A stretch of DNA of 62,748 bases from Tepidisphaeraceae bacterium (GCA_036794395.1 DAIRGS010000003.1:1-62748), one strand, 5' to 3'. Shown: positions 11,828-29,991, numbered from the stretch's first letter. Translations and numbers: made by a program. Notes: generated by a model not told the origin, from the sequence alone.

Positions 11828-11865
11828 ACGCGAATTGACAATTCCGAAAACCGAACGAACCCACA

Positions 11866-11890: not shown

Positions 11891-11958
11891 TCATTTAATA
11901 ATGCGCCCGAAATGCAAATTCGACCGGTTGGTTGAAGGACCATCAACCGGAGATTTGC

Positions 11959-14445: not shown

Positions 14446-14804
14446 CGCCCGCCTGTTCCACTGGCCGGACGCTATATCACGCCCTGCGCCGCGCCGGGGT
14501 GGTGCTGAGTGCCAACGGCGAACGGCTGACGTTTGATGCCCCTGCCGGAACGCTGACGCCCGATCTGCGCGGGCTGATGAAGGCCCGCAAGCCCGAGTTG
14601 TTGGCGGTGGTGCGGGGCGACTACCTGCGGGCCGCGCTGGCGATGGTGTTGGATGAACCGGAACCCGACCGGCAGAACGCCTTGGCGGAATGGTTCGATG
14701 AGCAGGCCGGCATCGGCGAGTACGACGGCAGCATGAGCCGTGGCGAAGCTGAGCGATCCGCCTACATCGCATTGTGCCGCGCTGTGGAAGGGGGCAGCGT
14801 ATGA
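14442..14804 (+). CDS. Hypothetical protein with TubC_N-like N-terminal motif
   Basis: LRRAGVVLSANGERLTFDAPAGTLTPDLRGLMKARKPELLAVV resembles the TubC N-terminal docking-domain pattern. ATGA coupling occurs at both ends. Confidence 0.6.
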   Translation: MTPACSTGRTLYHALRRAGVVLSANGERLTFDAPAGTLTPDLRGLMKARKPELLAVVRGDYLRAALAMVLDEPEPDRQNALAEWFDEQAGIGEYDGSMSRGEAERSAYIALCRAVEGGSV

Positions 14805-15031
14805 GCCTGTGGACGCTGACCCTTCGCCCCGAGGGCGACGGCCCGCCGGAAGCCTGCCGGGTGCGGCGGCTGCTGAAACTGGCGTTGAGAAGCTGCGGGC
14901 TGCGGTGCATCGACGTGCGGCATGAGGACACGCCGCGCCCAACACACGCTGACGAACGAAACGAAGCCCCAATGAAGCCGAAGGCATCCGAGCCGACCGC
15001 AGGCCGCTGCGATGCGGAGAACGAAACCTAA
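14801..15031 (+). CDS. Small hypothetical protein (76 aa)
   Basis: The ATG at 14801 overlaps the upstream stop (ATGA). It reads MSLWTLTLRPEGDGPPEACRVRRLLKLALR. Confidence 0.45.
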   Translation: MSLWTLTLRPEGDGPPEACRVRRLLKLALRSCGLRCIDVRHEDTPRPTHADERNEAPMKPKASEPTAGRCDAENET

Positions 15032-15055
15032 CAAAACATAACGTCTGGAAAGGCA

Positions 15056-15730
15056 ATGACCATGAAGAAGCGAACGAAGAAAACGACGCTGGCGAAGAAA
15101 CCGGCAACAACGCCCCAGCCGAAGGCCGCGCCGGTGCCGGCGGAGATTCACCACACGTTCACGCTGCTGGCGACCCTCAACCGCTACCAGATGGAAAAGA
15201 TTGGCGGGAAGGTTGGCAATCCGATTGCTGAGTCGTCGGCCAAGTTTGTGTGCGACCTGATGGAACGGTTCAAGGCCCGCGACCCCATCGAAGAAATGCT
15301 GTTCAGTCAGATGGTGTTGACCTATGGCCGCATGGCGTACCTGACGGCCTACGCGGACCAACAGAGCAACATCAAGTGGGCGACGATGATGCACGAAGCG
15401 GCGGATCGCGCCGCCAACACGTTCCGGCGGCAGATGCTGGCCCTGGCCGAATACCGACGCCCGCCGCGAGCCAACAGCTTTACCGCCATCGGGCAGGCCA
15501 ACATCGCGCAACAACAGGTAGTGCAAAACAGGATTTCCGAAAATGAGACGACGAACGAACAAGGATCGTCCGGCACGCCCGGAACCGCGAAGATGCTACC
15601 GCCTGACGGCCAAGGGGCTGCAAGCCCTGCGGGAAGCCGCGCGCCGGGTGCGGCCGTGGCTGGCGAGCACGGGACCGAAGACGGCGGCCGGGAAGGTGCG
15701 GGCGAGCGGGAACGCCCGCAAGCACGGTGA
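15056..15730 (+). CDS. Hypothetical protein; the C-terminal ~60 codons overlap the next ORF and look non-coding
   Basis: The first ~160 aa have normal composition. After ...QNRISENETTNEQ the sequence becomes G/A/P/R-rich and overlaps 15543-15851 in another frame. Confidence 0.5.
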   Translation: MTMKKRTKKTTLAKKPATTPQPKAAPVPAEIHHTFTLLATLNRYQMEKIGGKVGNPIAESSAKFVCDLMERFKARDPIEEMLFSQMVLTYGRMAYLTAYADQQSNIKWATMMHEAADRAANTFRRQMLALAEYRRPPRANSFTAIGQANIAQQQVVQNRISENETTNEQGSSGTPGTAKMLPPDGQGAASPAGSRAPGAAVAGEHGTEDGGREGAGERERPQAR

Positions 15731-15851
15731 ACGATCCGCCGAAGCCATGGCACAGAGGCGGGAAGCGGCAGCGCTGTTCCGCATGATGCGGACGATGGAG
15801 CGCGACCCGAACTCCGAAGGCCCGGCGGCCGGCGGAAGCATCAACATTTGA
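15543..15851 (+). CDS. Hypothetical protein with STGPKT..GK..S..NA.KHG motif
   Basis: ASTGPKTAAGKVRASGNARKHGERS is a recurring motif of small proteins in integrative elements (from memory). Confidence 0.5.
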   Translation: MRRRTNKDRPARPEPRRCYRLTAKGLQALREAARRVRPWLASTGPKTAAGKVRASGNARKHGERSAEAMAQRREAAALFRMMRTMERDPNSEGPAAGGSINI

Positions 15852-15873
15852 TGTTGACTATCAGACAACTATC

Positions 15874-16122
15874 GTGGAGAATGAAGCCGTGGCACGAAAA
15901 TCGAAAACTCTGGTGGATCAAATCCGCCGCGCCGTGGATGACTGCGGGATGAGCCGCTACGCGCTGGGGCAGTTGATCGGCATGGACAAGGCGCAGATGT
16001 CCCGCTTCATGGCGGGCAAAGGCTTCCTGTCCGAAGACTCGATGAACCGCCTGGCGGAATCGCTGCACCTGAGCATTTCGAGCGGGGCGAAGCCGAAGGC
16101 TGCGAAGACAAAGGACAGGTGA
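15874..16122 (+). CDS. XRE-type HTH transcriptional regulator
   Basis: MSRYALGQLIGMDKAQMSRFMAGKGFLSEDSMNRLAESL matches the Cro/C1-type HTH pattern. Confidence 0.7.
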   Translation: MENEAVARKSKTLVDQIRRAVDDCGMSRYALGQLIGMDKAQMSRFMAGKGFLSEDSMNRLAESLHLSISSGAKPKAAKTKDR

Positions 16123-16125
16123 AGC

Positions 16126-17454
16126 ATGGCGACGATTGGCAATGACCCCAATGGCTACCGGCGGATTCTTTTCGTGGCGGGCGACAGCAGCCGCAAGACA
16201 ATCCGGCTGGGCAAGGTGACGATGAAACAGGCCGAAGCCTTCAAGGTGAAGGCCGAAGCCCTGATCGGCGCTGGCATCACCGGCAACATGGACGATGAAA
16301 CGTCCCGCTGGCTGGCGACGATTGACGACAAGATGCACGCCCGCTTGGCGGCGGCGGGGCTGGTAAAGGCGCGCACCGGCGGCCGGGCGGTGCTGGGGAC
16401 GTTCATCGACGCCTTCATTGCGAGCCGGCCCGGCATGAAGGAACACACGCGATTGAATTGGGTGCAAGTGCGCCAATGGCTGGTGAAGCATTTCGGCGAG
16501 AGCCGCGACATGCGGAGCATCGACCACGGCGACGCGCTGGACTGGCAGACGTTCATGGCAAAGGGCGGGCTGGGGGAGAACACGTTGCGCCGGCACATCG
16601 GCCGCGCCCGCCAGTTGTTCAAGGCGGCGATCCGCCGGGGGCTGGTGCGCGGCGTCAATCCGTTTGAAGGAATGGCCGCGACGGTGCGGGCCGACAAGGA
16701 ACGGCTGGTGTTTGTCACGCGGGACGCGATAGCAAAGGTGCTGGACGCCTGCCCCGACGCCCAATGGAAGCTGATGATTGCCCTGAGCCGCTACGGCGGG
16801 CTGCGCTGCCCGAGCGAACACATGATGTTGAAGTGGGGCGACGTGGATTGGGAACGTGGGCGCATCACGGTACGAAGCCCGAAGACAGAACACCATGAAG
16901 GCAAGGATTTGCGGATGGTGCCGCTGTTCCCCGAGCTGCGGCCGTACCTGTTGGAAGCCTTTGAACAAGCCGAGCCGGGGACGGAGTACGTCATTACCCG
17001 CTACCGGGACAAAAACGCCAACCTGCGGACGCACTTCGGCCGGATCGTCGCTAAGGCCGGGGTGAAGGCGTGGGCGAAGCCGTGGCAGAATCTTCGGTCA
17101 ACGCGGCAGACGGAGCTTGCCGAGACGTACCCGATTCACGTCGTCTGTGCGTGGATCGGCAATAGCGAAGCCGTGGCGCAGGAACACTACCTGCAAGTGA
17201 CCGATGCGCACTTTGCGGCTGCGATCCGCGAGCCGGTGCCTGCGACCGGGCAGACACCGGCAAGCCCCGCTAACACCGCGGCACAGAATCCGGCACAGTA
17301 CCCGGCGGAATCGAGCTTACCCGAGCGGGAAACGGCAGGGGCTGAAAAGCAAAATCGCCCGGCTTTACCGGGCGATTCTGCTAAGTACCTGTCAGTACGG
17401 GACTTGAATGTACCCACAAGGGGAGTCGAACCCCTGTTCATATGCGTTTTTTAG
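16126..17454 (+). CDS. Tyrosine recombinase / phage-type integrase (element A)
   Basis: Catalytic region ALSRYGGLRCPSEHMMLKWGDVDW and LRSTRQTELAETYPIHVVCAWIGNSEAVAQEHYLQV (R, H-x-x-R/W, Y). The last 15 codons read through the att copy at 17411-17437. Confidence 0.85.
   Translation: MATIGNDPNGYRRILFVAGDSSRKTIRLGKVTMKQAEAFKVKAEALIGAGITGNMDDETSRWLATIDDKMHARLAAAGLVKARTGGRAVLGTFIDAFIASRPGMKEHTRLNWVQVRQWLVKHFGESRDMRSIDHGDALDWQTFMAKGGLGENTLRRHIGRARQLFKAAIRRGLVRGVNPFEGMAATVRADKERLVFVTRDAIAKVLDACPDAQWKLMIALSRYGGLRCPSEHMMLKWGDVDWERGRITVRSPKTEHHEGKDLRMVPLFPELRPYLLEAFEQAEPGTEYVITRYRDKNANLRTHFGRIVAKAGVKAWAKPWQNLRSTRQTELAETYPIHVVCAWIGNSEAVAQEHYLQVTDAHFAAAIREPVPATGQTPASPANTAAQNPAQYPAESSLPERETAGAEKQNRPALPGDSAKYLSVRDLNVPTRGVEPLFICVF
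17411..17437. repeat. 27-bp direct repeat of the tRNA-Glu 3' end (shared att site between elements A and B)
   Basis: tacccacaaggggagtcgaacccctgt versus 40497-40523 tacccccaaggggagtcgaacccctgt: 26 of 27 identical. Confidence 0.85.
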
Positions 17455-17479
17455 CTAATAATACGGTTTTTTGTCACTC

Positions 17480-17510
17480 TAATTCGGTATTGTGTTGCTT
17501 AATTCGGTAT
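17480..17510 (+). promoter_or_regulatory. Two direct TAATTCGGTAT repeats (putative integrase/excisionase arm-type sites, left end of element B)
   Basis: taattcggtat occurs at 17480-17490 and 17500-17510, a 20-bp period. The same motif pair occurs at 40402-40432, and inverted at 17599-17630. Confidence 0.6.
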
Positions 17511-17531
17511 TCAAGCCTACCATCTCGGGAG

Positions 17532-19091
17532 ATGAAAAAAACCACCAAGGGGCATCAGCGTAGGTCGCCGAAGGGGGAAACGCCGCAAACGCGCCGCAAT
17601 ACCGAATTAGCGGAAATCAATACCGAATTAACGAACCAGGGCGCCACCGCTACTGCCGCGCTCGCCGACACTGCCGCCACCGACACCGCCCAGACCGAGT
17701 TCAAGGGCCGGGTGCGACGCCAGCCGCGCCGCGTTCGGCCGCACCCGAGCGGGGCGTGGACGATCTGCATCGGCAAAGCGCTCAACAAGCGCAAGACCAA
17801 GCTGCGTGCGAAGGACTGGTATTTCCCCAATACCACCGAGGCAGATGCGAACACCGAGGCCGGCCGCATCAATCAGCGGTGGGACTTCCTCTGTGCCCAC
17901 TGGGCTCGGCTCTACCGCGACCGACTGGAATTGCTCGGCTCGTCGTTCGCCGCGGTCCCCCACTGGCAACCCGAACTGACGATCCAGGAGCCGACCGAGG
18001 CCGAAATCTCCGAACTTCAAAATCAGCCGCCGACCGCGGAGGAAATTGCCGAAGCCTATGTCGATGCCACGTTGCGCGCAGTCTTCGGGCTCTACAAGCT
18101 CCAGCAGGAAATGGACGTGACGGTGGGGGAGAAGCAGAACGTGACCCGAGGCGCCCTGCTCAAAAACATCCGCAATGGGTTGCGGTTTTTCCCCGACCCC
18201 GTGAAAGTGACCGACATCACGGCCGATCTGGTGCAAAGGACCAAGGCGGCGATGCTCACCGCCGGGCTGGGACGGCGGACGGTCAAGAATTACTTGGGCG
18301 GCATCCGGTCTATGCTGCTGTGGTTTTACGATTCCGAGTACGGCCGGACTCATGAAAAGCCGCCTCGGTTCGATGCCGCCTTCGCCGTTCCTCATGCAAT
18401 CCGCACTGATATCAAGACCCACGGCGCGCCGGAGTTGAAGGCGATGCTGGGTGCCGCCACCGAACGCACGCGGCTGTTCGCGATGCTGGCCCTGAACTGC
18501 GGCATGTACCAGAGCGACATCGGTCGGCTGACGCTCGACGAGATCAACTTGAAAGAGGGCTACATCTTCTGGGATCGCGAGAAGGAGCCGCAGAATCCCT
18601 TCCGGGTGCGGCACGACCTGTGGCCCGAAACGCTGGCGCTCGTCGGCAAATTCATCCAGAAGCCTGTCGGCGAACCGCGCCTGTTTGCAGATTTTCGCAA
18701 GGGCAAAGCTGAACAGATCGACTGCTCAAAGCTGGCGTTCGTAGATCGAAACGGGCTGCCGCTGTATCGCGTTCGAGAAAATGGCGATTCCTACGACAAG
18801 ATCAGCGACGCGTGGAAAGACCTCAAGGAGAAGCACGAGACTGCCCCACGCTTCAAAGACATCCGCAAATCAACCAACCAGCGCATCTGCGAGTTGGTTG
18901 CCGGCCAGCTCGGCGGCGACGATCCGCACCGTCTTGAAGCCGTCGGCGAAATCTCCAAAGAGTTCCTTGCCCAGAAGACGCCGACTCTCTCCCGCCTCTA
19001 CCTTCAGAGCGGGATGAGCCTTTACGACCGGATGAATCGTTTCCTCCGGCTTGTTGGGGAAGAATTTCGCAGGGTTCGAGTCTTCGCTTAA
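17532..19091 (+). CDS. Tyrosine recombinase / integrase (element B); start uncertain
   Basis: C-terminal catalytic region LFAMLALNCGMYQSDIGRLTLDEINL, FKDIRKSTNQ and PTLSRLYLQ. The ATG at 17532 follows GGGAG. The N-terminal codons NTELAEINTEL are encoded by the inverted arm-type repeats, so a later start is possible. Confidence 0.75.
   Translation: MKKTTKGHQRRSPKGETPQTRRNTELAEINTELTNQGATATAALADTAATDTAQTEFKGRVRRQPRRVRPHPSGAWTICIGKALNKRKTKLRAKDWYFPNTTEADANTEAGRINQRWDFLCAHWARLYRDRLELLGSSFAAVPHWQPELTIQEPTEAEISELQNQPPTAEEIAEAYVDATLRAVFGLYKLQQEMDVTVGEKQNVTRGALLKNIRNGLRFFPDPVKVTDITADLVQRTKAAMLTAGLGRRTVKNYLGGIRSMLLWFYDSEYGRTHEKPPRFDAAFAVPHAIRTDIKTHGAPELKAMLGAATERTRLFAMLALNCGMYQSDIGRLTLDEINLKEGYIFWDREKEPQNPFRVRHDLWPETLALVGKFIQKPVGEPRLFADFRKGKAEQIDCSKLAFVDRNGLPLYRVRENGDSYDKISDAWKDLKEKHETAPRFKDIRKSTNQRICELVAGQLGGDDPHRLEAVGEISKEFLAQKTPTLSRLYLQSGMSLYDRMNRFLRLVGEEFRRVRVFA
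17599..17630 (-). promoter_or_regulatory. Two inverted copies of the TAATTCGGTAT motif inside the 5' part of the integrase B ORF
   Basis: ataccgaatta occurs at 17599-17609 and 17620-17630, a 21-bp period. Confidence 0.55.
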
Positions 19092-19369
19092 ATCCCGACG
19101 CCTTCAGCGGTTGGTGCCCACTTCCGCCTTCGGGACGCCCCAGCGTGATCGTTGATGAGCATGAAAGGCATTATTACCAACTCCGGCAGCCGGCAAGAAC
19201 GCGCGCAGCTGCGCGGTGACGCGGCTAAGATGGGGAGTCAGACGCCGTTCTCGGCCGAAGAATCGGCCAGTGGGACACCCCGGCGCGGCCGACAAGTTCA
19301 GTTGAGAACGGATGCCGCTTACCGTACAATTCACTAATTCATGGTTCCGGACCCGTGACAGGAGACCCG

Positions 19370-19615
19370 ATGGCAGAAGCAGATAAACATCCGTCGCACT
19401 TTGAGATACACGTGGATGGCGTTCGAATCGAAGTGACCGAGCAGAATCTGACTGGTGCTCAGATCAAGGCAAAAGCGGGCAAAGACCCGCAGTACCAACT
19501 CTTTCTTGAAGAGAAGGGAAACGCTCCGGATCAACTGATCGCGGACAACCAAACGGTGAAGATTCAGAACGGCCTGCATTTCTACACGGTTCCACCCGCT
19601 ACCTTCGGAGCATGA
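19370..19615 (+). CDS. Ubiquitin-like beta-grasp protein, single multiubiquitin-type domain (81 aa)
   Basis: FEIHVDGVRIEVTEQNLTGAQIKAKAGKDPQYQLFLEEKGNAPDQLIADNQTVKIQNGLHFYTVPPATFGA fits the Multi_ubiq pattern (I.V.G......TG.qI...AG......L......g...i.d...V.i..G..F...P). GGAG lies 5 nt upstream of the ATG at 19370. The stop overlaps the next ATG. Confidence 0.75.
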   Translation: MAEADKHPSHFEIHVDGVRIEVTEQNLTGAQIKAKAGKDPQYQLFLEEKGNAPDQLIADNQTVKIQNGLHFYTVPPATFGA

Positions 19616-20004
19616 TGGGTCTCGTCGAAGAACATTTTGAGTCGCTCAAGACAAGGGATCGCTTCCACGAGGCGACGTTAATCGCCGTACCAAACGGCAC
19701 CTATGTCGTAAGGATTCCGCGCTTCCCGTTGCCGCAGGGGTGGAATCGCTCTGAGACCACTCTGTACTTCGTGATACCCGTTGGGTATCCGGTGGCAAAA
19801 CCCGATACGTTCTGGACCGAACCAGGTCTTGCCCTTGCGAGCGGAGCACAACCGCAAGCTGCGAACCCGGGTGGCAATCACTTGGAGGGGTTGCCGTCGG
19901 GCCTGCTTTGGTTTTCCTGGCATGCAGGCACGTGGAACCCAAATCGGGATAACCTACATAGCTACGTCGGTCTAATCGGAAAGCGCTTTCAGGAATTGCG
20001 ATGA
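19612..20004 (+). CDS. Prokaryotic E2/UBC-like protein (Prok-E2_E-like), no cysteine in the whole protein
   Basis: IPVGYPVAKPDTFWTEPGL ... LLWFSWHAGTWNPNRDNL resembles the bacterial E2 family that accompanies multiubiquitin and JAB-E1. The 130-aa sequence contains zero Cys. ATGA coupling occurs at both ends. Confidence 0.7.
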   Translation: MMGLVEEHFESLKTRDRFHEATLIAVPNGTYVVRIPRFPLPQGWNRSETTLYFVIPVGYPVAKPDTFWTEPGLALASGAQPQAANPGGNHLEGLPSGLLWFSWHAGTWNPNRDNLHSYVGLIGKRFQELR

Positions 20005-21359
20005 CATCCTATGTCTTTCCAGCCGACGAATTGGTCAAGTTGCGACAGTCCTTACTGAGCGAAGGACCGAAAGAAGCGGCTGCCGTCATCCTCGCGGGCC
20101 GCGCCGCGAACAGTGGCAGGACCGCTTTACTTGTGCGCGAATGTTTTCCTGTCCCGAGCGTCGGGTACGCGGTACAAGAATCTCTCCGACTCACGATAAG
20201 ACCTGAATTTTTAGCTCCGCTGTTGAAACGTAGCCGAATAGAAGGCTGGAGCATCATCTTTGCCCATACGCATCCCTTTTGCACGGATGATGTTCGATTT
20301 TCTCCCACCGATGATTCCGGTGAAAGTATTCTGATGCCCTCGGTGTTTAGCCGAGCGCCATCGCGGCCACATGCAAGTTTAGTGCTGGGAAGCCGCGGGT
20401 TCGACGCGCGGGTGTGGACCGCACCATCGTGGCCGCCTGAATCGGTAGACACGATCGTTGAATCAGGGAGTGAACTGCGAGTACACGCCCGTAGGCCCTC
20501 CGAAGCAGTTCCCCCCCCCGATGAGTTTGATCGTAGCGTGCGTGCCTTTGGATCAGCGGGGCAAGCCCTGCTTAAACGGCTTACGGTGGGAATAGTCGGA
20601 CTCGGAGGTATAGGGTCAATCGTTGCTGAAGAACTTGCGCACCTTGGCGTTGGGCGCATGATCCTCCTCGATCCTGATGCGGTTGAGCCCACGAACCTCA
20701 ATCGGCTTATTGGTGCGAACGCAATGAGTGTCGGTCGTCCGAAAGTCGATATCGCGGCGGAACACGTTAGCCGTATTCGACCGTCTATCCAATCAAATGC
20801 CGTAAATGGCAGTATTCTATCGGGTCATGACGGAAAGGCGCTTCTCGAAGCTGACTTGCTATTTGGTTGTACCGACTCACACGGAAGCCGTGCGGTACTC
20901 AACCAAATTGCATATCAATACATGATTCCCACAATCGATCTTGGGATCATCATCAACGTTGTGGACTTCAAAGTTCGGAGCGTCACGGGGCGCGTTCAGA
21001 TGCTCGCTCCGGGCCTTCCATGTCTTGTATGTCAGAACTTACTCAATCCTGAACAGGTGCGTCGGGATTTTCTGTCTCCGAAGGAGCGCGCGCTCGACCC
21101 ATATATTGTGGGTCTTCCTCGACCCGAGCCTCAACCATCTGTCGTTTCCCTAAATGGTACGATGGCATCGTTGGGGGTAACGATGATGCTGGCCGCTGTC
21201 ACCGGCCTGCCGTCTCCAGCGCGTCATCAGGTCTTCATTGGGGAGCGCGGTATTGTCCGAGCTGTCGCGTCCTCGCCGCTTGAAGATTGTGTCGTCTGCT
21301 CTCGCAGTGGTGCGTTGGGCCGTGGCGATCTGTGGCCGATGATGTGGAGGCCGGGGTGA
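20001..21359 (+). CDS. JAB/JAMM deubiquitinase-like domain fused to ThiF/MoeB-type E1 adenylyltransferase
   Basis: N-terminal JAMM motif AHTHPFCTDDVRFSPTDD (HxH...SxxD). E1 Rossmann motif VGLGGIGSIVAEELAHLGVGRMILLDPDAVEPTNLNRL. CxxC pairs PCLVCQN and CVVCSRS. Confidence 0.85.
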   Translation: MTSYVFPADELVKLRQSLLSEGPKEAAAVILAGRAANSGRTALLVRECFPVPSVGYAVQESLRLTIRPEFLAPLLKRSRIEGWSIIFAHTHPFCTDDVRFSPTDDSGESILMPSVFSRAPSRPHASLVLGSRGFDARVWTAPSWPPESVDTIVESGSELRVHARRPSEAVPPPDEFDRSVRAFGSAGQALLKRLTVGIVGLGGIGSIVAEELAHLGVGRMILLDPDAVEPTNLNRLIGANAMSVGRPKVDIAAEHVSRIRPSIQSNAVNGSILSGHDGKALLEADLLFGCTDSHGSRAVLNQIAYQYMIPTIDLGIIINVVDFKVRSVTGRVQMLAPGLPCLVCQNLLNPEQVRRDFLSPKERALDPYIVGLPRPEPQPSVVSLNGTMASLGVTMMLAAVTGLPSPARHQVFIGERGIVRAVASSPLEDCVVCSRSGALGRGDLWPMMWRPG

Positions 21360-22936
21360 ATGTCCCCAAGCGCCCAAATGTGCTATGGATCGGTGACGAG
21401 ATTGCCGATGGGTTGCGGTCTGCCGTGGAGGCACTGGGCCTCACTGTTATATTGACGAACGTTGAGGGGGCCGAGCCGGAGCGTCAGAATCCACATGCTG
21501 TGGTAATGCCATTCGACGGAGTCACAGAGGAGAAATTTCGTGGGCGGCTTGCGCATCTACTCATTCGATCACTGGACAGTGGCGCCCTTGTTACGGTCTT
21601 GGCGCAACCACACACCGATTACGAAGTTGCATCCAAATTGGCAATGGAGCGAGTCCAGGTTGAAGACGCACACGCCACCGATCTTCGTGATGTATACCCA
21701 AACTTTCATGTAATTCATCCTGATGTACGGGAATTGGCCCGGCTACTGCGCGATCACAATCCGGGACTTGCGGCAGACCAGCACCTTGTGCTTCAAGATC
21801 ACGAGGGAAGTACAACCCCGGCGGAAAAGTTGCTCCTCCGAAGGGCGTTCAGTGGATTCGACAGAATCGTATTGAAGCCACTTAGCGGGGGCCGCTCACC
21901 CGATAGCAAGGTCTGGAGAGTCGAGGCCCATGCTGGAGAACGATGTTGCGAGCCTTTCGTCGCCAAATGCGCGCGGCGTCTTACATTGGTCGAAGAGCTG
22001 AACACGTGGCGAGAACACGTGTTGAATTATATTCCATTTCCTTTCCGCGCGCCACCCGTTCCGGAACGTTTTGTGACGGGAGCAACCAGGGCGCTACTAG
22101 TCTCGATGCTTGCAAGTCGAGCACATCGTTTTGACGAATATGTTGCAACCGTCAAGGGTCCAGAACTGGCGATCGCTGCGCTTTTTGATGGTGCGTTGCG
22201 AAATTGGCGGCGCCAATCCCGGCCAGTTCGGCTCCAGCTGGGGCAAGTTTATACTTGGGAAGCCGATCAAGCAGAGCGGACAAGGGAGGCTGATCGTCGG
22301 TCTGGAAGACTCTCCCGAGCTGTGTTGCCGAGTCGTAGTTCTCTGACAGATGCATTTGAGCTTGCGAAGAAACGACAGTCGGACGTGGCAAACCCAGACG
22401 TGCTCTGGGCAATGCTCGCAGCGCTGCCGGAACTTGAGTACCACGAATGTCGTATGCATGGGGATCTGAACCCGCGGAATCTCTTCGTACGCTGGAATGG
22501 GGTCGATATCATCCTGATCGATTTTTCTCATGCTGGCGATTGGGCGCCGATGTCTCGTGATCCCTCACGGCTGGAGGTGAGCACGGCATTCGATGTGTTT
22601 GTCAAAATCAACGGGGAGAAACAGTTCTTAAGTGACGACATTCTCAACCGCTTTTACCGACCGCCACTTCTGCCACCGCGTATTCCGGCTAGTGAGGACG
22701 GGCGATTAGAGGCCGTTCGACAACTTAGGTTGCTCGCCGGTGGCGAGGGAATCAAGAACGCGGAGTATGCGACAACCACCGCCTGTCACCTATTGAAATA
22801 TGCGCGTGCGGGCAGCCGAACGGCAAGCGAAGTTTCGGAAGGTGAAGCGCGACGACTCCGTGGATTGAGCTATCTCCTCTCCGCAAAACTTATTCAATGG
22901 CTGCGTGAAGGGAATAATGCGAGGGGGGGTGACTGA
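21356..22936 (+). CDS. Kinase-like (APH/protein-kinase-like fold) protein with uncharacterised ~170-aa N-terminal domain
   Basis: Kinase-lobe motifs: LKPLSGGRSPDSKVWRV (Gly-rich), FVAKC (Lys), HGDLNPRNLFV (catalytic loop) and ILIDFSHAG (DFG-equivalent). A GTG start at 21356 overlaps the E1 stop (GTGA). The track ORF starts at 21287 inside the E1 gene. Confidence 0.7.
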   Translation: MNVPKRPNVLWIGDEIADGLRSAVEALGLTVILTNVEGAEPERQNPHAVVMPFDGVTEEKFRGRLAHLLIRSLDSGALVTVLAQPHTDYEVASKLAMERVQVEDAHATDLRDVYPNFHVIHPDVRELARLLRDHNPGLAADQHLVLQDHEGSTTPAEKLLLRRAFSGFDRIVLKPLSGGRSPDSKVWRVEAHAGERCCEPFVAKCARRLTLVEELNTWREHVLNYIPFPFRAPPVPERFVTGATRALLVSMLASRAHRFDEYVATVKGPELAIAALFDGALRNWRRQSRPVRLQLGQVYTWEADQAERTREADRRSGRLSRAVLPSRSSLTDAFELAKKRQSDVANPDVLWAMLAALPELEYHECRMHGDLNPRNLFVRWNGVDIILIDFSHAGDWAPMSRDPSRLEVSTAFDVFVKINGEKQFLSDDILNRFYRPPLLPPRIPASEDGRLEAVRQLRLLAGGEGIKNAEYATTTACHLLKYARAGSRTASEVSEGEARRLRGLSYLLSAKLIQWLREGNNARGGD

Positions 22937-22939
22937 ATC

Positions 22940-23314
22940 ATGTACCTCTATCGCGACGTGATTTACACGCAGATCGTGAGAGTCGCCGATCAATCCACGG
23001 CGGCGCAGTTCCTCAAACCGGGGACATTGGTGCTCGTGATGCCGGGCGAGAAGCCGAAATGGTTAAAATTCATTTGTCCATGTGGCTGTGGCGAGGTCGT
23101 TTCGGTCAACTTAATGCCTGGGCAAAGTCGAGCGTGGAGAATTACCTTAGAGCCTAAGCGGGGCCTCTCGTTATGGCCGTCGGTGCACTTGCAAGCGGGA
23201 TGTAAAAGTCATTTCACACTGTTCAACAATACGGCGCGACTCCTCTATCGCAAGCACCCGCAGGCAGATGAAGGGGGTGCGGAGACAAATGACCGCGGGG
23301 GCTGGATTGCATAA
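22940..23314 (+). CDS. Small Cys-rich zinc-ribbon protein (CPCGCG ... GCKSHF; DUF6527-like)
   Basis: WLKFICPCGCGEVVSVNLMPG...WPSVHLQAGCKSHFTLFNN. From memory this matches the small family that trails multiubiquitin/E2/ThiF operons. It begins 3 nt after the kinase-like stop. Confidence 0.6.
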   Translation: MYLYRDVIYTQIVRVADQSTAAQFLKPGTLVLVMPGEKPKWLKFICPCGCGEVVSVNLMPGQSRAWRITLEPKRGLSLWPSVHLQAGCKSHFTLFNNTARLLYRKHPQADEGGAETNDRGGWIA

Positions 23315-23322
23315 CTTTCCGC

Positions 23323-23655
23323 TCACCTCGATGAACCGTCCGCAGCCGTACCCGGTATCATGCTAATCTTCGCTTGGAACAGATCCACTGCGTGCTTCCG
23401 CTCTTCCGGCGTAAGCCCCGCCGCATCCATCCGCCGGTTCCAGTTGTTTCGCAAGTCCTCCAGGCTCTGGAGGCCGTCAAACCCGACGGCGCCGGCCTTG
23501 CGGACGTACACGAGGTTCTCGGGTTCGCTGACGGTAATCTCCGCGATTTCGGGATCGGTGAACGACTCGCCCAAGACGTACCCCACAATGGCCGCCATGA
23601 ACGGCGACATACCGGGAAACCTTGAAGGCCGAAGTTTTGTGACAAGAGCATCCAT
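23323..23655 (-). CDS. Hypothetical protein (110 aa), last gene of the minus-strand operon
   Basis: ATG at 23655; the track ORF uses a TTG at 23676. It lies 9-30 nt downstream of the helicase stop, and its own stop lies 8 bp from the stop of the convergent gene (23314). Confidence 0.5.
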   Translation of the reverse strand: MDALVTKLRPSRFPGMSPFMAAIVGYVLGESFTDPEIAEITVSEPENLVYVRKAGAVGFDGLQSLEDLRNNWNRRMDAAGLTPEERKHAVDLFQAKISMIPGTAADGSSR

Positions 23656-23685
23656 CGATTGACGATCTCTGCCCAATGCGAATTC

Positions 23686-26600
23686 TCAGGTTAGAAGGTC
23701 CGACAGTCCACGAATATGACTCACCGTTGAATCTGCCGCACCATCGGCGACGGAGACGATCACACGAAATAGCGGTCCATCGGGCAACAGAAGCTGATGG
23801 CTTTCAAAGTGGTCATCAAAGATATCGGGGTCGGCGGTGACTCGCGCCAAACCCGGTTCGCCCGGCAACGAGAGGCTAAACGTCCGAGGTTCCAACTCCT
23901 TACATACCGTGCCGGGCGGCAGCATCTCGGATTGCAACAGCAATTGACCGATCTGGGCGGGTGTGTACGGCGGTGGCGAAAACGCCGGAGGCAGAAGATC
24001 CGCATCGCTCAGCTCATCAATGTCAAACGTTGACGCCTCGGCGGCGCCCACGAGTATCTCGACGTTCCGCACGGCTTCGTGCCGTCCCTTTTCGCGGTCT
24101 TCTCTGCGTCGCAGCGCGGCCGCTTCGAATTCCTTGGGTAGCTGCGCGAGAATCGGCTGCAATTTTCCGATCACGCCGTTAAAAAGCCCGATCCGCGCGC
24201 TGAGCGCAAAATAAACATCCGCCTCCACGGTATCGGCGTACGCGAGATTGATGACGCGCACCTCTGGAAACCGCTGTCCGATGCGGTCAATGCGGCCGAT
24301 TCGCTGCTCGACCTTCATTGGGTTCCACGGCAGATCGTAATTCACGACCACGCCACAGCTTTGTAAGTTCAGTCCCTCACCAGCGGCGTCGGTGCATACG
24401 AGAACCTTTACAGTGCCGTCCTTGAGCATTCGCTTGATCTGCTCCTTCGTCCGTCCGGTCCATCGACCGGCCGCATCGCGAATCTCGCCGCCGCGCCCGC
24501 TGAAACAGCCGACCGATACCTCTAGCTGGTCTGCAAGGAACTCGCGCAGAAAGTCCATCGTGTCGGTGTATTGCGTGAAGACGATCGCCGAGTCGTACCC
24601 GTCGGCGAACGCGCTCTGAAGCTGGTCGCGCACTTCGCGGGCCTTGGTGTCGGTCCCGAGCTTTGCGATCCCCTTCAGCAGATCCTGAATCGAACTCTCC
24701 TCTTCCACGCCTAGCGCCTTGGCCTGAAGTTCATCCGCCTCGTCATTAGCGAGGACTTCCAACGCCCGGTCGTCCTGGGGGAGATCCTCCTCCAGCCGAT
24801 CTTCATCCCCGCGGCCCGGCTCGAAGCCCTTGATCCGGGCCAGTCGCGATTCCAACGTCTTTCGGAGCGAATAAAAGCTGCTGGCCAATCGGCGACGATA
24901 AATCGTCATCACGAACCCGACCGCAGTTTTTTTGTCCGGCGACGCGGATTGATACGTGGTGCTGATGTAATCCTCCACCGCGTCGTACAGCTCGCGCTCC
25001 GCCGTGCTAAGAACGACAGCTTTGTCCAGCACCTTCCGGTCCGCGATGGGCGAATCAAGCAGCCCCTTTTTGAAATACCGCCGAAGAAGGTTGCGCGTGT
25101 GCCGCGACATCCGGTGGTAGATCGGGCTGCACGATCGGAGAAGCGCGATCAGGGCTTGGCGTTGCTTTGTGCTGAGCCGCTTAATTGGGATCGTCGTGTT
25201 CGGCTCCCGCGCGGCGGCCAACACTTTGTTGACATCAATCTTCGATAGATGCATCGCGTCGCTGATTCGATGGACCAGCGTGTCCGGCGCGGCCCCGAAG
25301 TCGCGTTCGGTGGCCTGAAACAGCACTGCGGCGCGGTAAAGGTCCTCGTCGCCCGGATTGCCCCCGAGCATCTCAAAGTAATTCGTGAAGACGCCCGGCG
25401 ACCATTCATCGGGCATGCCCAGAAGGCTGAGAAGGTCCCACATCTCGACCGGATGGACTTGCATCGGCGTCGCGGTGAGCAGCAACAAGGATTTCGCCTT
25501 GTGTTTGATCGAATGCATCAACCGCAAGAGGCGGTTTGGACCGCCCTCCTGCGGCGTTCCCGGCGCGCTTCGGCGGGCATGATGTGCCTCGTCGAGCACA
25601 AATAAATCCCAGTCTTCGGCTTCGATCAGCTCCTGTTGCCGCTCCCGGCGCCGCATCAGGTGGCTGCTGACCAGCACGATGGGCTCTTTCGTCCATTCGC
25701 CTCGGCTGACCGGCCGTTCAAGTGGCCCCGTTCGGTGATGGTACTCCGGCCAGCACAGTGACTTCCCCGTGTAGATCGGCACCAGCAGATTGAACTTCTC
25801 ATAAAGCTCCGATTGCCACTGCTTCAGCAGCCCCTTGGGCGCCATGATCAGCACCCGCTTGGCCAGCTCCGCGATCCACGTGTGCCGGATAATCAAGCCG
25901 GCCTCGATCGTCTTGCCGAGCCCCACTTCGTCCGCGATCAGCAGACGTAGGGGCCAGGTGTCGATCATCCGCTTGTAGGCCCGAAGCTGATGCGGCCATG
26001 GTTTCACAGCGCTGGTGACCACCGCCACCATCGCGCCGTCGGGCCGCTTGGGCGCATGTTTAATGAAGGACCAGATCAGACGTCGTCGCTCATCGATCGG
26101 CATTGGCGGCGGCGCATCGTCCGCCGGGGCGTCGCCATTTTCTTCATTGGTGGTCTTCTTGTCCTTCGCCTTCGGCGGCTTTACGAACGTGTCGTCGATC
26201 GGAAGAAACTCCAGAAGCTTCTCTTTGAGCGCCTCCGGGAAGTCGAATACTTTGGCGCTTTTCGCTTTCCCCGACCAGAGCTTGGCAAACTCGCCCTCGG
26301 TTTTCCTGACTTTCGCGGCGTCCCACTCACCTCGCCACGAGCAGCTCACGTCGAACGATTCGCAATTGTTCAGCCACCCCGCCGGCGTCTCGTTGATCGA
26401 TCCCTTGAACACCAGCTTGTCGCCGGCATCGTCCACGATGACGCCGGCCTTGGCGTGATACAAACCCAACCCAGCTCGCATCTCGCCGTGCTCATCCAGC
26501 GGCACGGCAATTTTCACGTCCAGAAACCCGTGCGCGATCATCCACGCCAGATAGCCGATGTTTCGTCGCGCTTGAGGGGATTCGTGAGTAAGTGGAATGC

Positions 26601-26907
26601 GGTTGATCGACGATCGCGTCACCGCCTCGCGAACGTCGTACCCCTTCTTGATGTCTTCCACATCCTGTTCGCTCAGGGTGCAACCGACGAGCAACTGCAT
26701 CCGCCCGCCGCGGGCGATCAGTGCGTCCAGCCCGCGTGCCGCCAGCGCCAGCACGTCGCCCGAAAAATACCCCGTTGCCCGCAGGTACAGGCGCGCCCGC
26801 GACAGCGCCGGGACGAAGAACATCGCAACCAGATCGCCGTCCTCGTGGCTGTACCCGACGTCCCAGTCCCGGTCTCGCAGCGATGATGTCCCCGTCCCCT
26901 CGTTCAC
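23686..26907 (-). CDS. PLD-like nuclease domain fused to SNF2-family helicase
   Basis: N-terminal HKD-like motif [12 protein letters not shown]...[8 protein letters not shown]. SNF2 motifs [41 protein letters not shown] and [22 protein letters not shown]. A GTG start at 26907 overlaps the methylase stop (GTGA). The track ORF's extra 164 N-terminal codons overlap the methylase gene. Confidence 0.85.
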   Translation of the reverse strand: [1073 protein letters not shown]

Positions 26908-29900
26908 GGCTTCCCCGCCTCCGGCTGGTCGAACAGCATCCATTCCTTGGATTGCGGCACCTCGCCAGAAAACATGAGCTTCCGTAGCTTCTCCATCGCC
27001 TCCGCGTCCGCCGCCGCGCCGGCAAGCGCGCCCTTGCCGCTCACCATCCGTGGGGTTGGCAGCACCTGTAGCGCGGCCTCCATCGCCATCAAGAAGGCGC
27101 TGTCCTTGTGCAGTTCGGATCGTTCGATTAGTTCCTTGGCCACACCCACATTCCGTTCCCGCACCGCCTGGGCGACCTGGTGAAGGGCGTCGAGCCGGCA
27201 AATACCGTTGAGCGATCCAATGGCGCTCTTCTTGGCCCGCTGGCCGGAATCCCACACGATGACGTCGCCGCCCTTGAGTTCCAGCACCTTGTTGCGCAAC
27301 TGCTCGTCGAAATTGACGCCGACCACCCGCGCCAGCTTCAGTGCTTCGTCTGCCGGAAACTGCGGGCTTTTGAAAGCGTCCCACGCCAGCACGAACCACT
27401 CGGTTACCGGATCGAGGCTCGCCTTTCGATGGACCGTGGTCAACTCAAGAAGACGCCACTGCTTTACCGCCTTTCGAGCGGCCATGAGAGCGTCTTCAGG
27501 TCGCACCGCATACGGGTCCCACTCCTCATCCTCCACGAGCTTCAACTGCGCGCCCTTGACCGGCAGTGGCCTCTGGTTCGCCCGGCCGCGCTTCATGGGC
27601 CAATTCTTGCTGAACACTTCAAGCGCCGGTCCGAAGCACGACAAATACAGGTCCACACCGCTCATGCCGATGTCGTGAAATAGCCCTACTTTTTGAAGCA
27701 CAATCTCCGTTACCTTTGGCTCGACGTCTTCCCAGTATGTGGTTTCGGCATTCGCGGCCGGCGTCTGGCGCGGACGGCAGACCAGGAAGATCGTACTCTT
27801 CGCGGCGTTCTTATCCTTGATGTGCAGGCTCCCCTCCGCTTCAGTCTGGATCGGCCAGCTTGCCGTGATTACAAATCCCGCGTCCACCAGACCCTTGGCA
27901 AGCGCGTCCCACGCGCCGGTGGCCTTGTGGGTGAACATGAGGGTCATGATGCCCTCGGGCTTCAGTACCCGACGGGCCTCGGTAAAGATCGCCTGCATCC
28001 GCTCCTGGTAGTCGCGGCTGGCGCGTTTCTTCGCCCCGCCGCTTCCTTTGACCTTGGAAAAATCCTTGAACTTCGCCGGGTTCGCGACGGCCTCGCGGTC
28101 CTTGTCGGTCAACTGGTCGGCGAACTGTTCGGGGAACAGCAGCCCCGCAGTCCGCTTCAGCCACACGTAAAAGAAGTCCGCCAACTCCGCGTACATCACA
28201 TTGTCGTAGTAGGGAGGATCGAGTACGACCGCGTCGATGCTGGCGTCGTCGAGTTGCGTAACATTGTCGCCAGAACCTCGAATTATCGTAATTTGGGAGG
28301 TGCCATCTGTCTCCGCCGACGAGCGACGAAAATCGAGGGTAAGGCCGTCGCCGGACAACTCGGTACCACTAAGCTGAATAAGCTCCGCCAAAGCTTTCCC
28401 AGTCTGCTTGATCGCCCAGTCATAGCCCAAACCTGCAACACATGGAGCCATTTCCGCATAGCTCCAAAGGAACGCGAAATCGTGCCGATCAAAGACTCCG
28501 GCGACCACTTCACGATTGGCGTGCCAACGGACTGATCTCGCGTTGTAATTCAGGAGTTTGTCCAATCCAATCGCCAGGTAGGACATCGCCGCTTTGTCGA
28601 TCTCGTTGAGTTTCTTCGATGTTGCGCATTCGGCGACAAGCTCGTGGAAGACTTCCACGCTCGTCCCGTGGCCGAGCAACTGGCGAGGTGAAAACATGTC
28701 GCGCCACTTCAACATGCCGACCTTGCGAGGCTTGTCTGTGCCGCTGCCGGTGTCATCGCCGGTCTTGTGCCCGTGCGGAATCTCCTCGTCCGGCACGATA
28801 TTTCTCGCCAGCCATTCTGGCATCTTGGCATCCAGCGCCTTTTTCACCTGATCGGCGATGTCGTCTTCGGGGCGTGGGGCGCGGAAGCCGCGGGTCTTCT
28901 TGATCTTGGGTTTACCGTTCTTGGCGTGACCGATCACTTTGCGTTCGGTGTAGACGACGGCGTAGAGCTGCTCGCCCATGGCACCTGCAATGGCTTGAGC
29001 CTGAATCTCCGTGTTGTTGAAGACCCGACGACAGTCGGGAAACGGGCAGAGGCCGTCGCCACCTTTGACGGTACCAGCAGATTGGTGGGACGTATCGTCG
29101 ACAATTTCAAACTTGCAGACGCGGTCTTCCGGGTTACCCGTCTGCGGCACCACCCGCACGCCAACGCCCTTGTTGTTCAACCTCCAATTCGGCGACAGCG
29201 GCACAAGCCCGTTGCAATAGGGGCAGTGAACGGTGCGGGCCCACAGATAAGTCGCATCCTCACGTTCGGGGTTCGGATCGCTTGGAAAGAATGGCTGCAT
29301 CCGCTCCTTCATCACCGTCAGCCACTTCCCAGCGAGCACTTTGTACCGTTGCAGCAACTCAGGACCAAAACGTGCGGGGAATTCGACCGTTGCCTTCAGG
29401 ATGAGCCAAGCGACGGGGTTGAGGTCATTGGCGTAGGTATCACAGCCGAGCCGCATCGCTTCGAATGGGATTGACCCACCACCTGCGGTGCTATCGAGGA
29501 CACGGGGAGAAACACCCTGCCCCCCGAGGGTGCGAACATAATCGCGATCTGCTTCGGTTGGGTTGTAGCCAAATGCTCGGTCATATCCATAAGGGTTTGT
29601 AACCCGAACGCCGGTCCGTATTGCCTCTTGTATTAAGACCCTTGCTTTCGCTGGGTCGCCGTGGATGCCAAGGGCGTGGAGGAATTTCTTGTGATCGGCG
29701 TCGGCGGGAAGAAGGGACGCCAACACCGCGGCCCGGCTGGCGACGAGCGGACGACGCGCCCACCACACGTGCAGCCGGTTCGGCGCCGGGAACGGCGTCA
29801 TCGGCGTCCGCTCGCGCAGCGACTCGATTCCAATCTCCACGATGGGCAACCACTCCTCGATCAGCCGGCGCGTTGAACCAACGGCGGGCTTGCGGCTGAT

Positions 29901-29921
29901 GTCGGCGGCGGCATTGGTCAT
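26904..29921 (-). CDS. DUF1156-type DNA methyltransferase (DPPY motif, Zn-ribbon insert)
   Basis: N-terminal NRLHVWWARRPLVASRA (DUF1156 signature). SAM motif VLDSTAGGGSIPFEAMRLG. Catalytic VLDPPYYDNVMYAELADFFYVW. CPYCNG...CPFPDC zinc ribbon. The ATG at 29921 is preceded by GGAAGGAG. Confidence 0.85.
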   Translation of the reverse strand: MTNAAADISRKPAVGSTRRLIEEWLPIVEIGIESLRERTPMTPFPAPNRLHVWWARRPLVASRAAVLASLLPADADHKKFLHALGIHGDPAKARVLIQEAIRTGVRVTNPYGYDRAFGYNPTEADRDYVRTLGGQGVSPRVLDSTAGGGSIPFEAMRLGCDTYANDLNPVAWLILKATVEFPARFGPELLQRYKVLAGKWLTVMKERMQPFFPSDPNPEREDATYLWARTVHCPYCNGLVPLSPNWRLNNKGVGVRVVPQTGNPEDRVCKFEIVDDTSHQSAGTVKGGDGLCPFPDCRRVFNNTEIQAQAIAGAMGEQLYAVVYTERKVIGHAKNGKPKIKKTRGFRAPRPEDDIADQVKKALDAKMPEWLARNIVPDEEIPHGHKTGDDTGSGTDKPRKVGMLKWRDMFSPRQLLGHGTSVEVFHELVAECATSKKLNEIDKAAMSYLAIGLDKLLNYNARSVRWHANREVVAGVFDRHDFAFLWSYAEMAPCVAGLGYDWAIKQTGKALAELIQLSGTELSGDGLTLDFRRSSAETDGTSQITIIRGSGDNVTQLDDASIDAVVLDPPYYDNVMYAELADFFYVWLKRTAGLLFPEQFADQLTDKDREAVANPAKFKDFSKVKGSGGAKKRASRDYQERMQAIFTEARRVLKPEGIMTLMFTHKATGAWDALAKGLVDAGFVITASWPIQTEAEGSLHIKDKNAAKSTIFLVCRPRQTPAANAETTYWEDVEPKVTEIVLQKVGLFHDIGMSGVDLYLSCFGPALEVFSKNWPMKRGRANQRPLPVKGAQLKLVEDEEWDPYAVRPEDALMAARKAVKQWRLLELTTVHRKASLDPVTEWFVLAWDAFKSPQFPADEALKLARVVGVNFDEQLRNKVLELKGGDVIVWDSGQRAKKSAIGSLNGICRLDALHQVAQAVRERNVGVAKELIERSELHKDSAFLMAMEAALQVLPTPRMVSGKGALAGAAADAEAMEKLRKLMFSGEVPQSKEWMLFDQPEAGKP

Positions 29922-29991
29922 GGTCACGAACTCCTTCCCAGGAAATGCATCTTCCTTCTGGGCTGGCGGAAAGCAAAGTGTTCGCATTCGG

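Follow-up and report, generated by a model that had tools for sequence, protein, structure and literature searches.

Why would an operon for the conjugation of a ubiquitin-like protein (Ubl) also encode a kinase? The question is raised by a stretch of 62,748 nucleotides from a Tepidisphaeraceae bacterium (GCA_036794395.1 DAIRGS010000003.1:1-62748), which was analysed over its full length and is called the window here. At positions 21356-22936 it encodes a 526-residue kinase-like protein, and the predicted products of the genes on either side identify the surrounding operon as a Bub (bacterial ubiquitination-like, formerly 6E/DUF6527) system. Bub systems were shown in 2024-2026 to be ubiquitination-like machines using oxyester chemistry (Ye, Gong, Chambers and Corbett; PMC11601596). 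Type I Bub (6E.1/DUF6527) consists of BubAB, BubCD and BubE (bioRxiv 2024, cited as Nature Structural & Molecular Biology (NSMB) 2026; Citrobacter structures PDB 9ea4 and 9eae; PMC11601596). The word 'kinase' is absent from the Bub preprint (PMC11601596) and its companion text, while the published NSMB version may differ, and the 2006 description of the 6e operon lists only a polyUbl, an inactive ubiquitin-conjugating enzyme (E2), a fusion of a JAB peptidase to a ubiquitin-activating enzyme (E1), and a metal-binding protein. On balance, we favour the reading that the kinase is a dedicated fifth component, that is, a regulatory or sensor subunit that would couple phosphorylation to Ubl conjugation in one Bub subtype.

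Linkage of the kinase gene to Bub cassettes

The longest open frame at the locus spans 21287-22936 and contains an in-frame GTG at 21356, at which the gene is placed as follows:

21346 to 21350, plus strand: Shine-Dalgarno-like GGAGG, 5 nucleotides 5' of the kinase GTG, read directly from the sequence
21356 to 22936, plus strand: kinase gene, GTG to TGA, 526 amino acids

A word-indexed search of 5.8 billion proteins with this 526-residue product as query returned the window's own product and 40 clusters of relatives (P0002-P0041), E-values reaching 0 to 1e-162. About 30 of the 40 align over 92-98% of its length, with identities of 36-52%, and these begin, in the alignment, at the position equivalent to GTG 21356; arginine R6, near the N-terminus, is found in 108 of the 108 members in which the position is present. 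Because the relatives begin at the equivalent position, GTG 21356 is the likely start and the N-terminal domain is predicted to be translated. The original prediction had considered that the true start might lie far downstream, which does not agree with the conservation of the N-terminal domain and of the start itself. Given the E-values of the relatives and a confident AlphaFold2 model, the frame is not a chance open reading frame (ORF).

The kinase GTG and the bubCD stop share four nucleotides (GTGA, 21356-21359). This overlap had been pointed out before and read as evidence for stoichiometric co-expression with the conjugation enzymes; the overlap itself stands, and what it shows is translational coupling of the kinase to bubCD, not stoichiometry.

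The other genes of the operon, with one upstream element, are:

19302 to 19330, plus strand: candidate sigma-70-like promoter TTGAGA-17-TACAAT, matching 10 of 12 consensus positions, just 5' of bubA
19355 to 19615, plus strand: bubA, a Ubl of 86 amino acids with a single beta-grasp domain (Pfam Multi_ubiq, E 5.5e-12); alternative ATG at 19370
19612 to 20004, plus strand: bubB, a cysteine-less E2 of 130 amino acids (Pfam Prok-E2_E, E 8.8e-14); its start overlaps the bubA stop (ATGA)
20001 to 21359, plus strand: bubCD, a JAB peptidase-E1 fusion of 452 amino acids (Pfam ThiF, E 1.5e-36)
22940 to 23314, plus strand: bubE, a DUF6527 serine protease of 124 amino acids (Pfam DUF6527, named BubE in newer Pfam, E 5.1e-16)

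The junctions are, in order, ATGA, ATGA, GTGA and a 3-nucleotide gap, bubE beginning 3 nucleotides past the kinase stop. The promoter candidate is the sole promoter-like site in 19000-23800; it is a consensus match, and the number of such sites is not above that in shuffled sequences. The four protein families of Type I Bub are all found in the window: a Multi_ubiq Ubl, a cysteine-less Prok-E2_E protein with an S-x-H motif, a JAB-E1 fusion with a crossover-loop tyrosine, and a DUF6527 protein with a Ser/His dyad and a four-cysteine zinc site. More specifically, the catalytic motif of BubB is S102-W-H104, common to kinase-linked and canonical BubB, and the protein matches Citrobacter BubB (PDB 9eae) at E 1e-4. 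Over residues 14-398 BubCD aligns with its Citrobacter counterpart (PDB 9ea4) at E 1.2e-40, the JAB motifs and the tyrosine of GY(I/V)xG falling in register. Its JAB residues are E25, H89-x-H91 and S101..D104; it also has a ThiF domain and, on the crossover loop, Y368. BubE has a C46/C48/C50/C88 zinc site and an S81/H91 dyad, whose spacing is identical to that of the corresponding residues in Citrobacter BubE (C57/59/61, S92, C99 and H102; PMC11601596). NCBIfam and PADLOC gave no match for the kinase, nor for BubA, BubB or BubE.

Two features set the window's operon apart from the Type I definition. The first is the 526-residue kinase between bubCD and bubE. The second is that BubA and BubB are encoded by separate, overlapping genes, so that the operon comprises five genes including the kinase, not three genes with a BubAB fusion among them. 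The separate BubA of the window ends in FYTVPPATFG plus one alanine (nucleotides 19583-19612), and in 16 kinase-linked cassettes the same conserved FYTVPPATFG is followed by 0-7 variable residues, as in ubiquitin precursors. Such a tail implies a precursor that would be trimmed to its C-terminal glycine although BubA and BubB are unfused; the JAB domain of BubCD is the presumed protease.

Is this arrangement particular to the window? Genomic contexts were gathered from eleven exact-protein look-ups, from scans of genome and metagenome contigs, and from annotated plasmids. The contig scans used a single pattern and undercount the family, so the loci number at least those found, and an exhaustive hidden Markov model (HMM) search was relied on instead. 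Cassettes were analysed by tblastn and by HMM searches with profiles of the cassette's own proteins; distinct loci were counted, the window included.

Among these loci, BubCD lies directly upstream of the kinase wherever upstream sequence is available (25 of 25), and BubE directly downstream in 25 of 26. BubA and BubB are both present in 20 of the 21 loci with enough upstream sequence, the exception being a degraded copy (L009). The order BubA-BubB-BubCD-kinase-BubE is listed for L001-L009, L013-L017, L019-L020 and L025-L031. Where gene calls and annotations were checked, the start of the kinase gene overlaps the stop of bubCD, mostly by 4 nucleotides and in a few annotations by 8-47. Even the most divergent members of the family, with N-terminal domain E-values of 1e-5 to 1e-3, lie in Bub cassettes. 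As far as sampled, the kinase is confined to the position between bubCD and bubE.

These loci span Pseudomonadota, Deinococcota, Acidobacteriota and Planctomycetota as well as soil metagenomes. The hosts include plasmids of Mesorhizobium, Rhizobium and Bradyrhizobium, a Deinococcus plasmid, and metagenome-assembled genomes of Candidatus Sulfotelmatobacter and Phycisphaerae; cultured carriers are Mesorhizobium sp. 131-2-5, Bradyrhizobium guangxiense and Deinococcus sp. AB2017081, and kinase orthologues from cultured hosts are WP_199202649.1 (Mesorhizobium), WP_128929562.1 (Bradyrhizobium) and WP_322474877.1 (Deinococcus). The placement of the kinase inside a Ubl conjugation operon, as originally proposed from this one sequence, is thus supported by the 4-nucleotide overlap and by a gene order conserved across phyla. 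As with Type I Bub, the setting is a mobile element or defence island, and CapH/CapP-like regulators are frequent in the relatives.

Some hosts evidently let the cassette decay. L009 (4754-7899) has a truncated bubCD, a split bubE and neither bubA nor bubB. In L015 (1409-4741) the reading frame is shifted within bubCD and again where the kinase meets bubE, the latter producing a false fusion ORF. We had considered this fusion as Rosetta-stone evidence and rejected it, as it is a frameshift product in which the C-terminal helix of the kinase is destroyed and bubCD is split as well. A third decaying locus, L032, is described below.

A comparison with operons that have no kinase came from a tblastn search of the window's BubCD against 72,556 plasmids. 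The matches are bimodal, with 13 records at 41-43% identity and 115 at no more than 34%. The kinase is present in 12 of the 13 records of the upper class. Nine canonical operons of the low-identity class, namely seven plasmid loci and the second operons of L002 and L005, do not have it. Neighbour joining places the kinase-linked BubCDs in a single clade, with 36-86% identity among themselves and at most 35% to canonical BubCDs. The window's BubCD falls in this separate clade, and its crossover loop (window ~21060-21110, residues ~354-370) shares with the other kinase-linked copies a length 6 residues shorter than in canonical BubCD.

The thirteenth record, Roseomonas mucosa AD1 (L032), has a bubCD truncated by IS21 with bubE directly after it, and the kinase is lost. 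Its BubCD is nested within the kinase clade beside a Mesorhizobium sequence (56% identity), a position that points to secondary loss of the gene while the locus was decaying. The tree indicates a single acquisition of the kinase in the BubCD phylogeny and its retention in all intact cassettes. Because kinase-linked BubCDs form one clade and the nine canonical operons have no kinase, the kinase marks a monophyletic Bub subtype. The split of BubA and BubB, also considered as a hallmark, was discarded: the canonical operons of Synechocystis pSYSX and B. quebecense are split too, and it is therefore the kinase, not the split, that distinguishes the subtype. What is new here is a monophyletic, cross-phylum subtype of Type I-like Bub operons with a dedicated, evidently active kinase that has a sensor-like front domain.

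Two metagenomic loci each hold two paralogous conjugation systems. In L002 (1991-4792, minus strand) and L005 (9318-11861, minus strand) a complete canonical Type I Bub operon lies back-to-back with the kinase cassette. These second operons encode a BubAB fusion, BubCD and a BubE-like protein, with a CapH/CapP-like pair of helix-turn-helix (HTH) and M78 proteins between or beside the two systems.

Two domains of the kinase

The protein divides into an N-terminal and a catalytic part:

21356 to 21775, plus strand: residues 1-140, predicted pseudo-receiver and conserved HxPGPxA linker (AlphaFold2, Foldseek, profile search)
Residues 9-15, 49-55 and 78-85: N-terminal strands VLWIGDE, VVMPFDG and LVTVLAQP
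21776 to 22936, plus strand: residues 141-526, catalytic domain with a helical C-terminal subdomain (Pfam TCAD9/APH, Foldseek, conserved residues)
21881 to 21898, plus strand: residues 176-181, Gly-rich loop LSGGRS
21959 to 21967, plus strand: residues 202-204, VAK lysine motif
22457 to 22480, plus strand: residues 368-375, catalytic loop HGDLNPRN
22517 to 22537, plus strand: residues 388-394, IDFSHAG

All the motifs named in the original prediction, the N-terminal strands included, are present in this ORF where they had been placed. Residues ~145-526 form a protein-kinase-like domain of the APH/choline-kinase/TCAD9 branch, as had been suggested from the motifs. In Pfam, TCAD9 (PF19974) scores 43.3 bits with a cut-off of 40, and APH 25.0 bits with a cut-off of 23.2; both matches lie in residues 333-415, the catalytic-loop region alone, and the TCAD9 alignment covers profile positions 277-346 of 429, while outgroup kinases score 94-111 bits. 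An AlphaFold2 model of the full-length protein, built from 31 homologues, is confident (predicted local distance difference test (pLDDT) 92, predicted template modelling score 0.89) and shows a bilobal kinase fold. With this model Foldseek found 70 PDB matches at E<=1e-3, kinases throughout among the matches listed. Choline kinase comes first (E 1.1e-6), with maltokinase, APH(3') and APH(2'') also among the leaders; matches to PknB, BMPR2 and the peptide kinase LxmK are weaker by about 1-2 orders of magnitude. No solved structure is near the kinase in sequence.

Conservation was counted in 116 full-length family members spanning less than 30% identity. The beta3 lysine K204 is present in all 116, as are H368, N375 and the metal-binding D389, equivalent to the DFG aspartate; D370 is found in 115 and the alphaC glutamate E214 in 114. 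Because the catalytic residues are almost invariant, the domain is evidently, by prediction, an active enzyme and not a pseudokinase. A phage or viral origin of the kinase was also considered and set aside, as INPHARED phages and IMG/VR contained no matches and BFVD gave generic kinases only.

The N-terminal part had been described as about 170 residues of receiver- or flavodoxin-like fold. Its extent is revised to ~135 residues; residues 140-170 belong to a conserved linker (HxPGPxA, LLRRAF) and to the beginning of the kinase N-lobe. The likeness holds at the level of fold. Residues 1-135 are arranged as b1-a1-b2-a2-b3-a3-b4-a4-b5-a5, the (beta-alpha)5 fold of CheY, in a model of the domain alone with pLDDT 90.8. 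The best PDB matches by Foldseek are response-regulator receivers and the TadZ pseudo-receiver, at weak E-values of 2e-3 to 2e-2 and template modelling scores of 0.55-0.68. Topology and size are the same as in receivers and pseudo-receivers such as CheY, KdpE and the TadZ N-terminal domain.

At the level of sequence, neither a family nor a phospho-acceptor was found. The N-terminal domains of 22 members matched no Pfam family, Response_reg included, even at E<=10, and hhalign against a true receiver gave a probability of 0.3%, which leaves sequence homology undetected. We had considered homology to receivers and do not uphold it; only likeness of fold and architecture is claimed. In the window's copy acidic residues occupy receiver positions (D14/E15 after b1, D54 after b3), and the pair is not conserved: aspartate occurs at the b1 position in 18 of 116 members and at the phospho-acceptor position of b3 in 34 of 116. 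The positions ending beta4 and beta5, which hold Thr/Ser and Lys in receivers, are likewise variable among the 116. What is conserved, besides R6, is G76, fixed in 115 of 116 members. Because the fold is CheY-like while Pfam and hhalign are negative and the acceptor aspartate is not conserved, we label the domain a pseudo-receiver, in which Asp phosphorylation has, by prediction, been lost. Unlike response regulators, it comes with no Response_reg match, no conserved acceptor aspartate and no histidine kinase partner.

An exhaustive HMM search with this domain found 128 proteins among 1.84 billion representatives. Essentially all carriers are ~470-560 amino acids long with the domain at the N-terminus, and the shorter ones resemble fragments. 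Because it sits N-terminally on proteins of about 500 residues, the domain is predicted to be specific to this kinase family, a rare one of 128 clusters at 50% identity. The search thereby defines a new pseudo-receiver domain that is an orphan in sequence.

The kinase can also be placed relative to TCAD9 proteins, listed among the protein-kinase-like families and named from vWA-MoxR-VMAP conflict systems (Kaur, Burroughs, Iyer and Aravind, eLife 2020, PMC7159879). TCAD9/APH-like kinases of conflict systems and the window kinase belong to the same superfamily branch, are predicted to be active and lie in conflict-type loci. Unlike the TCAD9 systems, the window kinase matches only 70 of the 429 profile positions, has a family-specific pseudo-receiver and is linked exclusively to Ubl-conjugation genes; the window and the gene tables of the Bub-linked loci examined contain no vWA-MoxR-VMAP, STAND or GTPase partner.

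One outgroup kinase is informative for the architecture. The 558-residue product of L021 (3804-5480) has a Response_reg domain (E 9e-11) ahead of a TCAD9 kinase (E 9e-32), and its gene neighbours encode a GAF histidine kinase on one side and an nSTAND1/Trans_reg_C protein on the other, a two-component context. The C-lobe of the window kinase is 33% identical to a receiver-TCAD9 kinase, and in both the window kinase and the L021 protein a receiver-like domain stands N-terminal to an output enzyme. A receiver joined to a kinase is therefore predicted to be a genuine architecture in this kinase group, and descent of the orphan domain from a receiver is plausible but unproven.

Two outgroup loci deserve mention in their own right. 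In L021 (18-6939) the receiver-TCAD9 kinase is flanked by a histidine kinase with six GAF domains and by an nSTAND1 NTPase-Trans_reg_C fusion. The three would constitute an uncharacterised signalling module of two-component/STAND type, centred on this kinase group. In L022 a related kinase lies beside TIR- and RyR-domain proteins.

Possible roles of the kinase

In vitro, Ubl conjugation by canonical Bub enzymes proceeds without a kinase (PMC11601596), and the kinase would for this reason stand outside the core chemistry, as an added layer of post-translational control. We hypothesize that the pseudo-receiver, having lost Asp phosphorylation, docks on or allosterically senses a Bub partner (the BubCD dimer, BubB or BubA) or a trigger. 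Phosphorylation by the kinase domain, either of a pathway protein (BubA, BubB, BubCD or BubE) or of a conjugation target, would in turn license or restrain Ubl transfer.

A role as transcriptional regulator is unlikely, since CapH/CapP-like HTH and M78 pairs, found in many kinase-bearing loci, supply that function. Another kinase, CapK, is known from Bub operons: an anti-sigma-factor-type protein of HTH-STAS-GHKL architecture, it is encoded upstream, together with CapS as its substrate, and controls transcription when single-stranded DNA is present (Chambers et al., EMBO J 2026, PMC13373217). Both are kinases genetically associated with Bub operons. We nevertheless reject the identification of the window kinase with CapK, as fold, gene position and partners all differ: the window kinase is protein-kinase-like and lies inside the operon, Pfam finds no HATPase_c, STAS or HTH match in it, and no CapS-like gene is present.

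Several points weigh against a regulatory or sensor subunit. The link between the kinase and the Bub proteins is drawn from genetic context, and operon membership alone cannot separate a regulator from an effector. One locus, L010, has no BubE downstream of the kinase. The failure of hhalign to relate the N-terminal domain to a true receiver counts here too. The closest relatives by structure, choline kinase, maltokinase and APH, have small-molecule substrates, and low-molecular-weight substrates have been suggested for the APH-like kinases of conflict systems (Kaur et al., PMC7159879).

Nor did a search for phosphorylation sites name a substrate. When 19-21 kinase-linked sequences of BubA, BubB, BubCD and BubE were compared with 8-10 kinase-less ones, no conserved Ser/Thr/Tyr was unique to kinase-linked BubA, BubB or BubE. 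A single conserved, clade-specific Ser/Thr is notable: S356 of the window's BubCD, on the crossover loop and 12 residues ahead of Tyr368, at a position where canonical BubCDs have basic residues. It may be a mere clade marker or helix cap, and we give it little weight. An apparent kinase-clade-specific serine in BubB (20/20 versus 0/9) proved to be an artefact of MAFFT gap placement, S-x-H being kept in both groups.

The most serious alternative to a regulatory or sensor subunit, which we hold possible if clearly less probable, is that the kinase is an effector, the killing or signalling arm of the system. Conjugation of BubA to the kinase, or binding of BubA conjugates or oligomers through the pseudo-receiver, would activate it, host or phage proteins would be phosphorylated with an abortive-infection-type outcome, and BubE would reset the system. 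No phage protection has so far been seen for canonical Bub operons (PMC11601596), in which a defence role is not established either; they also contain nothing recognisable as an effector, so that the output could come from an added enzyme. Related TCAD9 kinases are effector-type modules beside TIR, STAND and vWA-MoxR genes, the catalytic residues are strictly conserved, and the loci lie in defence islands beside Hma-like, RES-Xre, HEPN, CBASS and restriction-modification genes. However, the kinase has no invariant lysine other than the catalytic K204 and therefore no conserved acceptor lysine, and its C-terminus is variable, so that it does not look like a Ubl substrate in the way CD-NTases are for Cap2. 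No antitoxin-like partner is apparent and nothing points to toxicity. The site between the E1 and the deconjugating protease, with the start/stop overlap, fits a subunit of a complex equally well.

Kinases and ubiquitin are intertwined in eukaryotes, where PINK1 phosphorylates ubiquitin and Parkin, and ubiquitin chains activate TAK1/IKK in animal innate immunity. To our knowledge, coupling between phosphorylation and Ubl conjugation has not been described in bacteria. By analogy, the kinase and the Ubl might form a signalling pair, in which BubA or the oxyester-forming Ser/Tyr enzymes are phosphorylated so as to gate conjugation (PINK1-like), or BubA conjugates or oligomers activate the kinase by binding its pseudo-receiver (TAK1/IKK-like). 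We offer this idea tentatively; the likeness to PINK1 and TAK1/IKK is that of a kinase coupled to a Ubl cascade, with no homology beyond the kinase superfamily. If true, it would be the first crosstalk module between phosphorylation and ubiquitination-like conjugation in bacteria and would give a handle on the trigger and the targets of Bub. More generally, should the kinase act on or answer to the Ubl machinery, the coupling of phosphorylation to Ubl conjugation would not be confined to eukaryotes. The cultured hosts of the cassette and the published conjugation assay make the role of the kinase in Bub testable.

It is unlikely that the enzyme is a small-molecule kinase, acting on a metabolite, antibiotic, nucleotide or second messenger that feeds Bub or is sensed by it. 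The substrates proposed for conflict-system APH-like kinases (PMC7159879) and the best fold matches, which are small-molecule kinases, speak for this, as do the APH match above the Pfam threshold, the RefSeq name of the orthologues ('phosphotransferase') and a helical C-terminal subdomain typical of the APH/choline-kinase branch. Against it, no biosynthetic, transport or ligand-binding gene is conserved nearby, the conserved neighbours being protein-conjugation enzymes only, and the family was never found as a stand-alone gene of the resistance type. Furthermore, protein and peptide kinases (PknB, BMPR2 and LxmK) also appear among the fold matches, at similar E-values.

Very improbable is a non-catalytic scaffold or adaptor resembling a ubiquitin ligase (E3), in which the kinase fold would bind targets or bridge BubB~BubA to substrates and ATP would be structural at most. 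Bub operons contain neither an E3 nor a specificity factor (PMC11601596), kinase-fold proteins of related conflict systems are often inactive (PMC7159879), and a large two-domain protein would suit bridging; yet the K, E, HxD, N and D residues are kept in 114-116 of 116 members, the opposite of a pseudokinase pattern. A mere passenger, that is, an ordinary antibiotic, fructosamine or housekeeping kinase without Ubl linkage, a prospect raised with the original prediction, or an artefactual N-terminal domain, is effectively refuted in spite of the weak and partial Pfam matches in the catalytic-loop region: position and linkage are conserved in ~27 loci of several phyla, the presence of the kinase tracks one BubCD clade, 116 homologues share a conserved N-terminal domain, and NCBIfam and PADLOC contain no resistance or housekeeping kinase that matches.

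The island around the operon and other features

The Bub operon lies between two copies of a tRNA-Glu 3' end:

17410 to 17438, plus strand: candidate left attachment (att) site, a copy of the tRNA-Glu 3' end (27 of 29 nucleotides; shuffles expect 0)
40496 to 40569, minus strand: tRNA-Glu(CTC), putative integration site and right att site (ARAGORN), with the repeat at 40496-40524

The two copies are ~23 kb apart, and a weaker, degenerate copy lies 7.4 kb further, at 10026-10053. A tyrosine recombinase gene (17442-19091) stands just before the Bub operon, and a second repeat of 31 nucleotides (17479-17509 and 40402-40432) lies just inside both ends. This arrangement suggests two tandem integrative islands, with the Bub operon in the one of ~23 kb.

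Beside the Bub operon, on the minus strand at 23686-35043, are genes for an SNF2 helicase, a DUF1156 adenine methyltransferase (HmaB-like) and a DUF499 protein. The best PADLOC matches of the helicase are BrxH, PbeA, HmaA and DrmD, and the three genes look like an Hma- or DISARM-like defence system. They are followed by genes for a serine recombinase (35171-37144) and a Mu Gam-like protein (37340-37954).

In other loci an S8 subtilisin-like peptidase adjoins the Bub operon (L005, 1594-4885; L037, 1-1498; L035, 4329-6368). These loci are unrelated and include both kinase-bearing and canonical operons, and in L005 and L037 an AAA ATPase accompanies the peptidase. It is possible that the peptidase is a recurrent partner or part of a neighbouring defence system.

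The G+C content at 10000-16000 of the window is 63-67%, compared to 56-60% elsewhere, and this segment coincides with the putative older island between the distal att-like repeats. Within it, a plus-strand ORF of 120 amino acids (14442-14804) matches the TubC N-terminal docking domain (Pfam E 8e-13), just downstream of the gene for a 735-residue AAA_25 (RepA/primase-like) protein (12238-14445).

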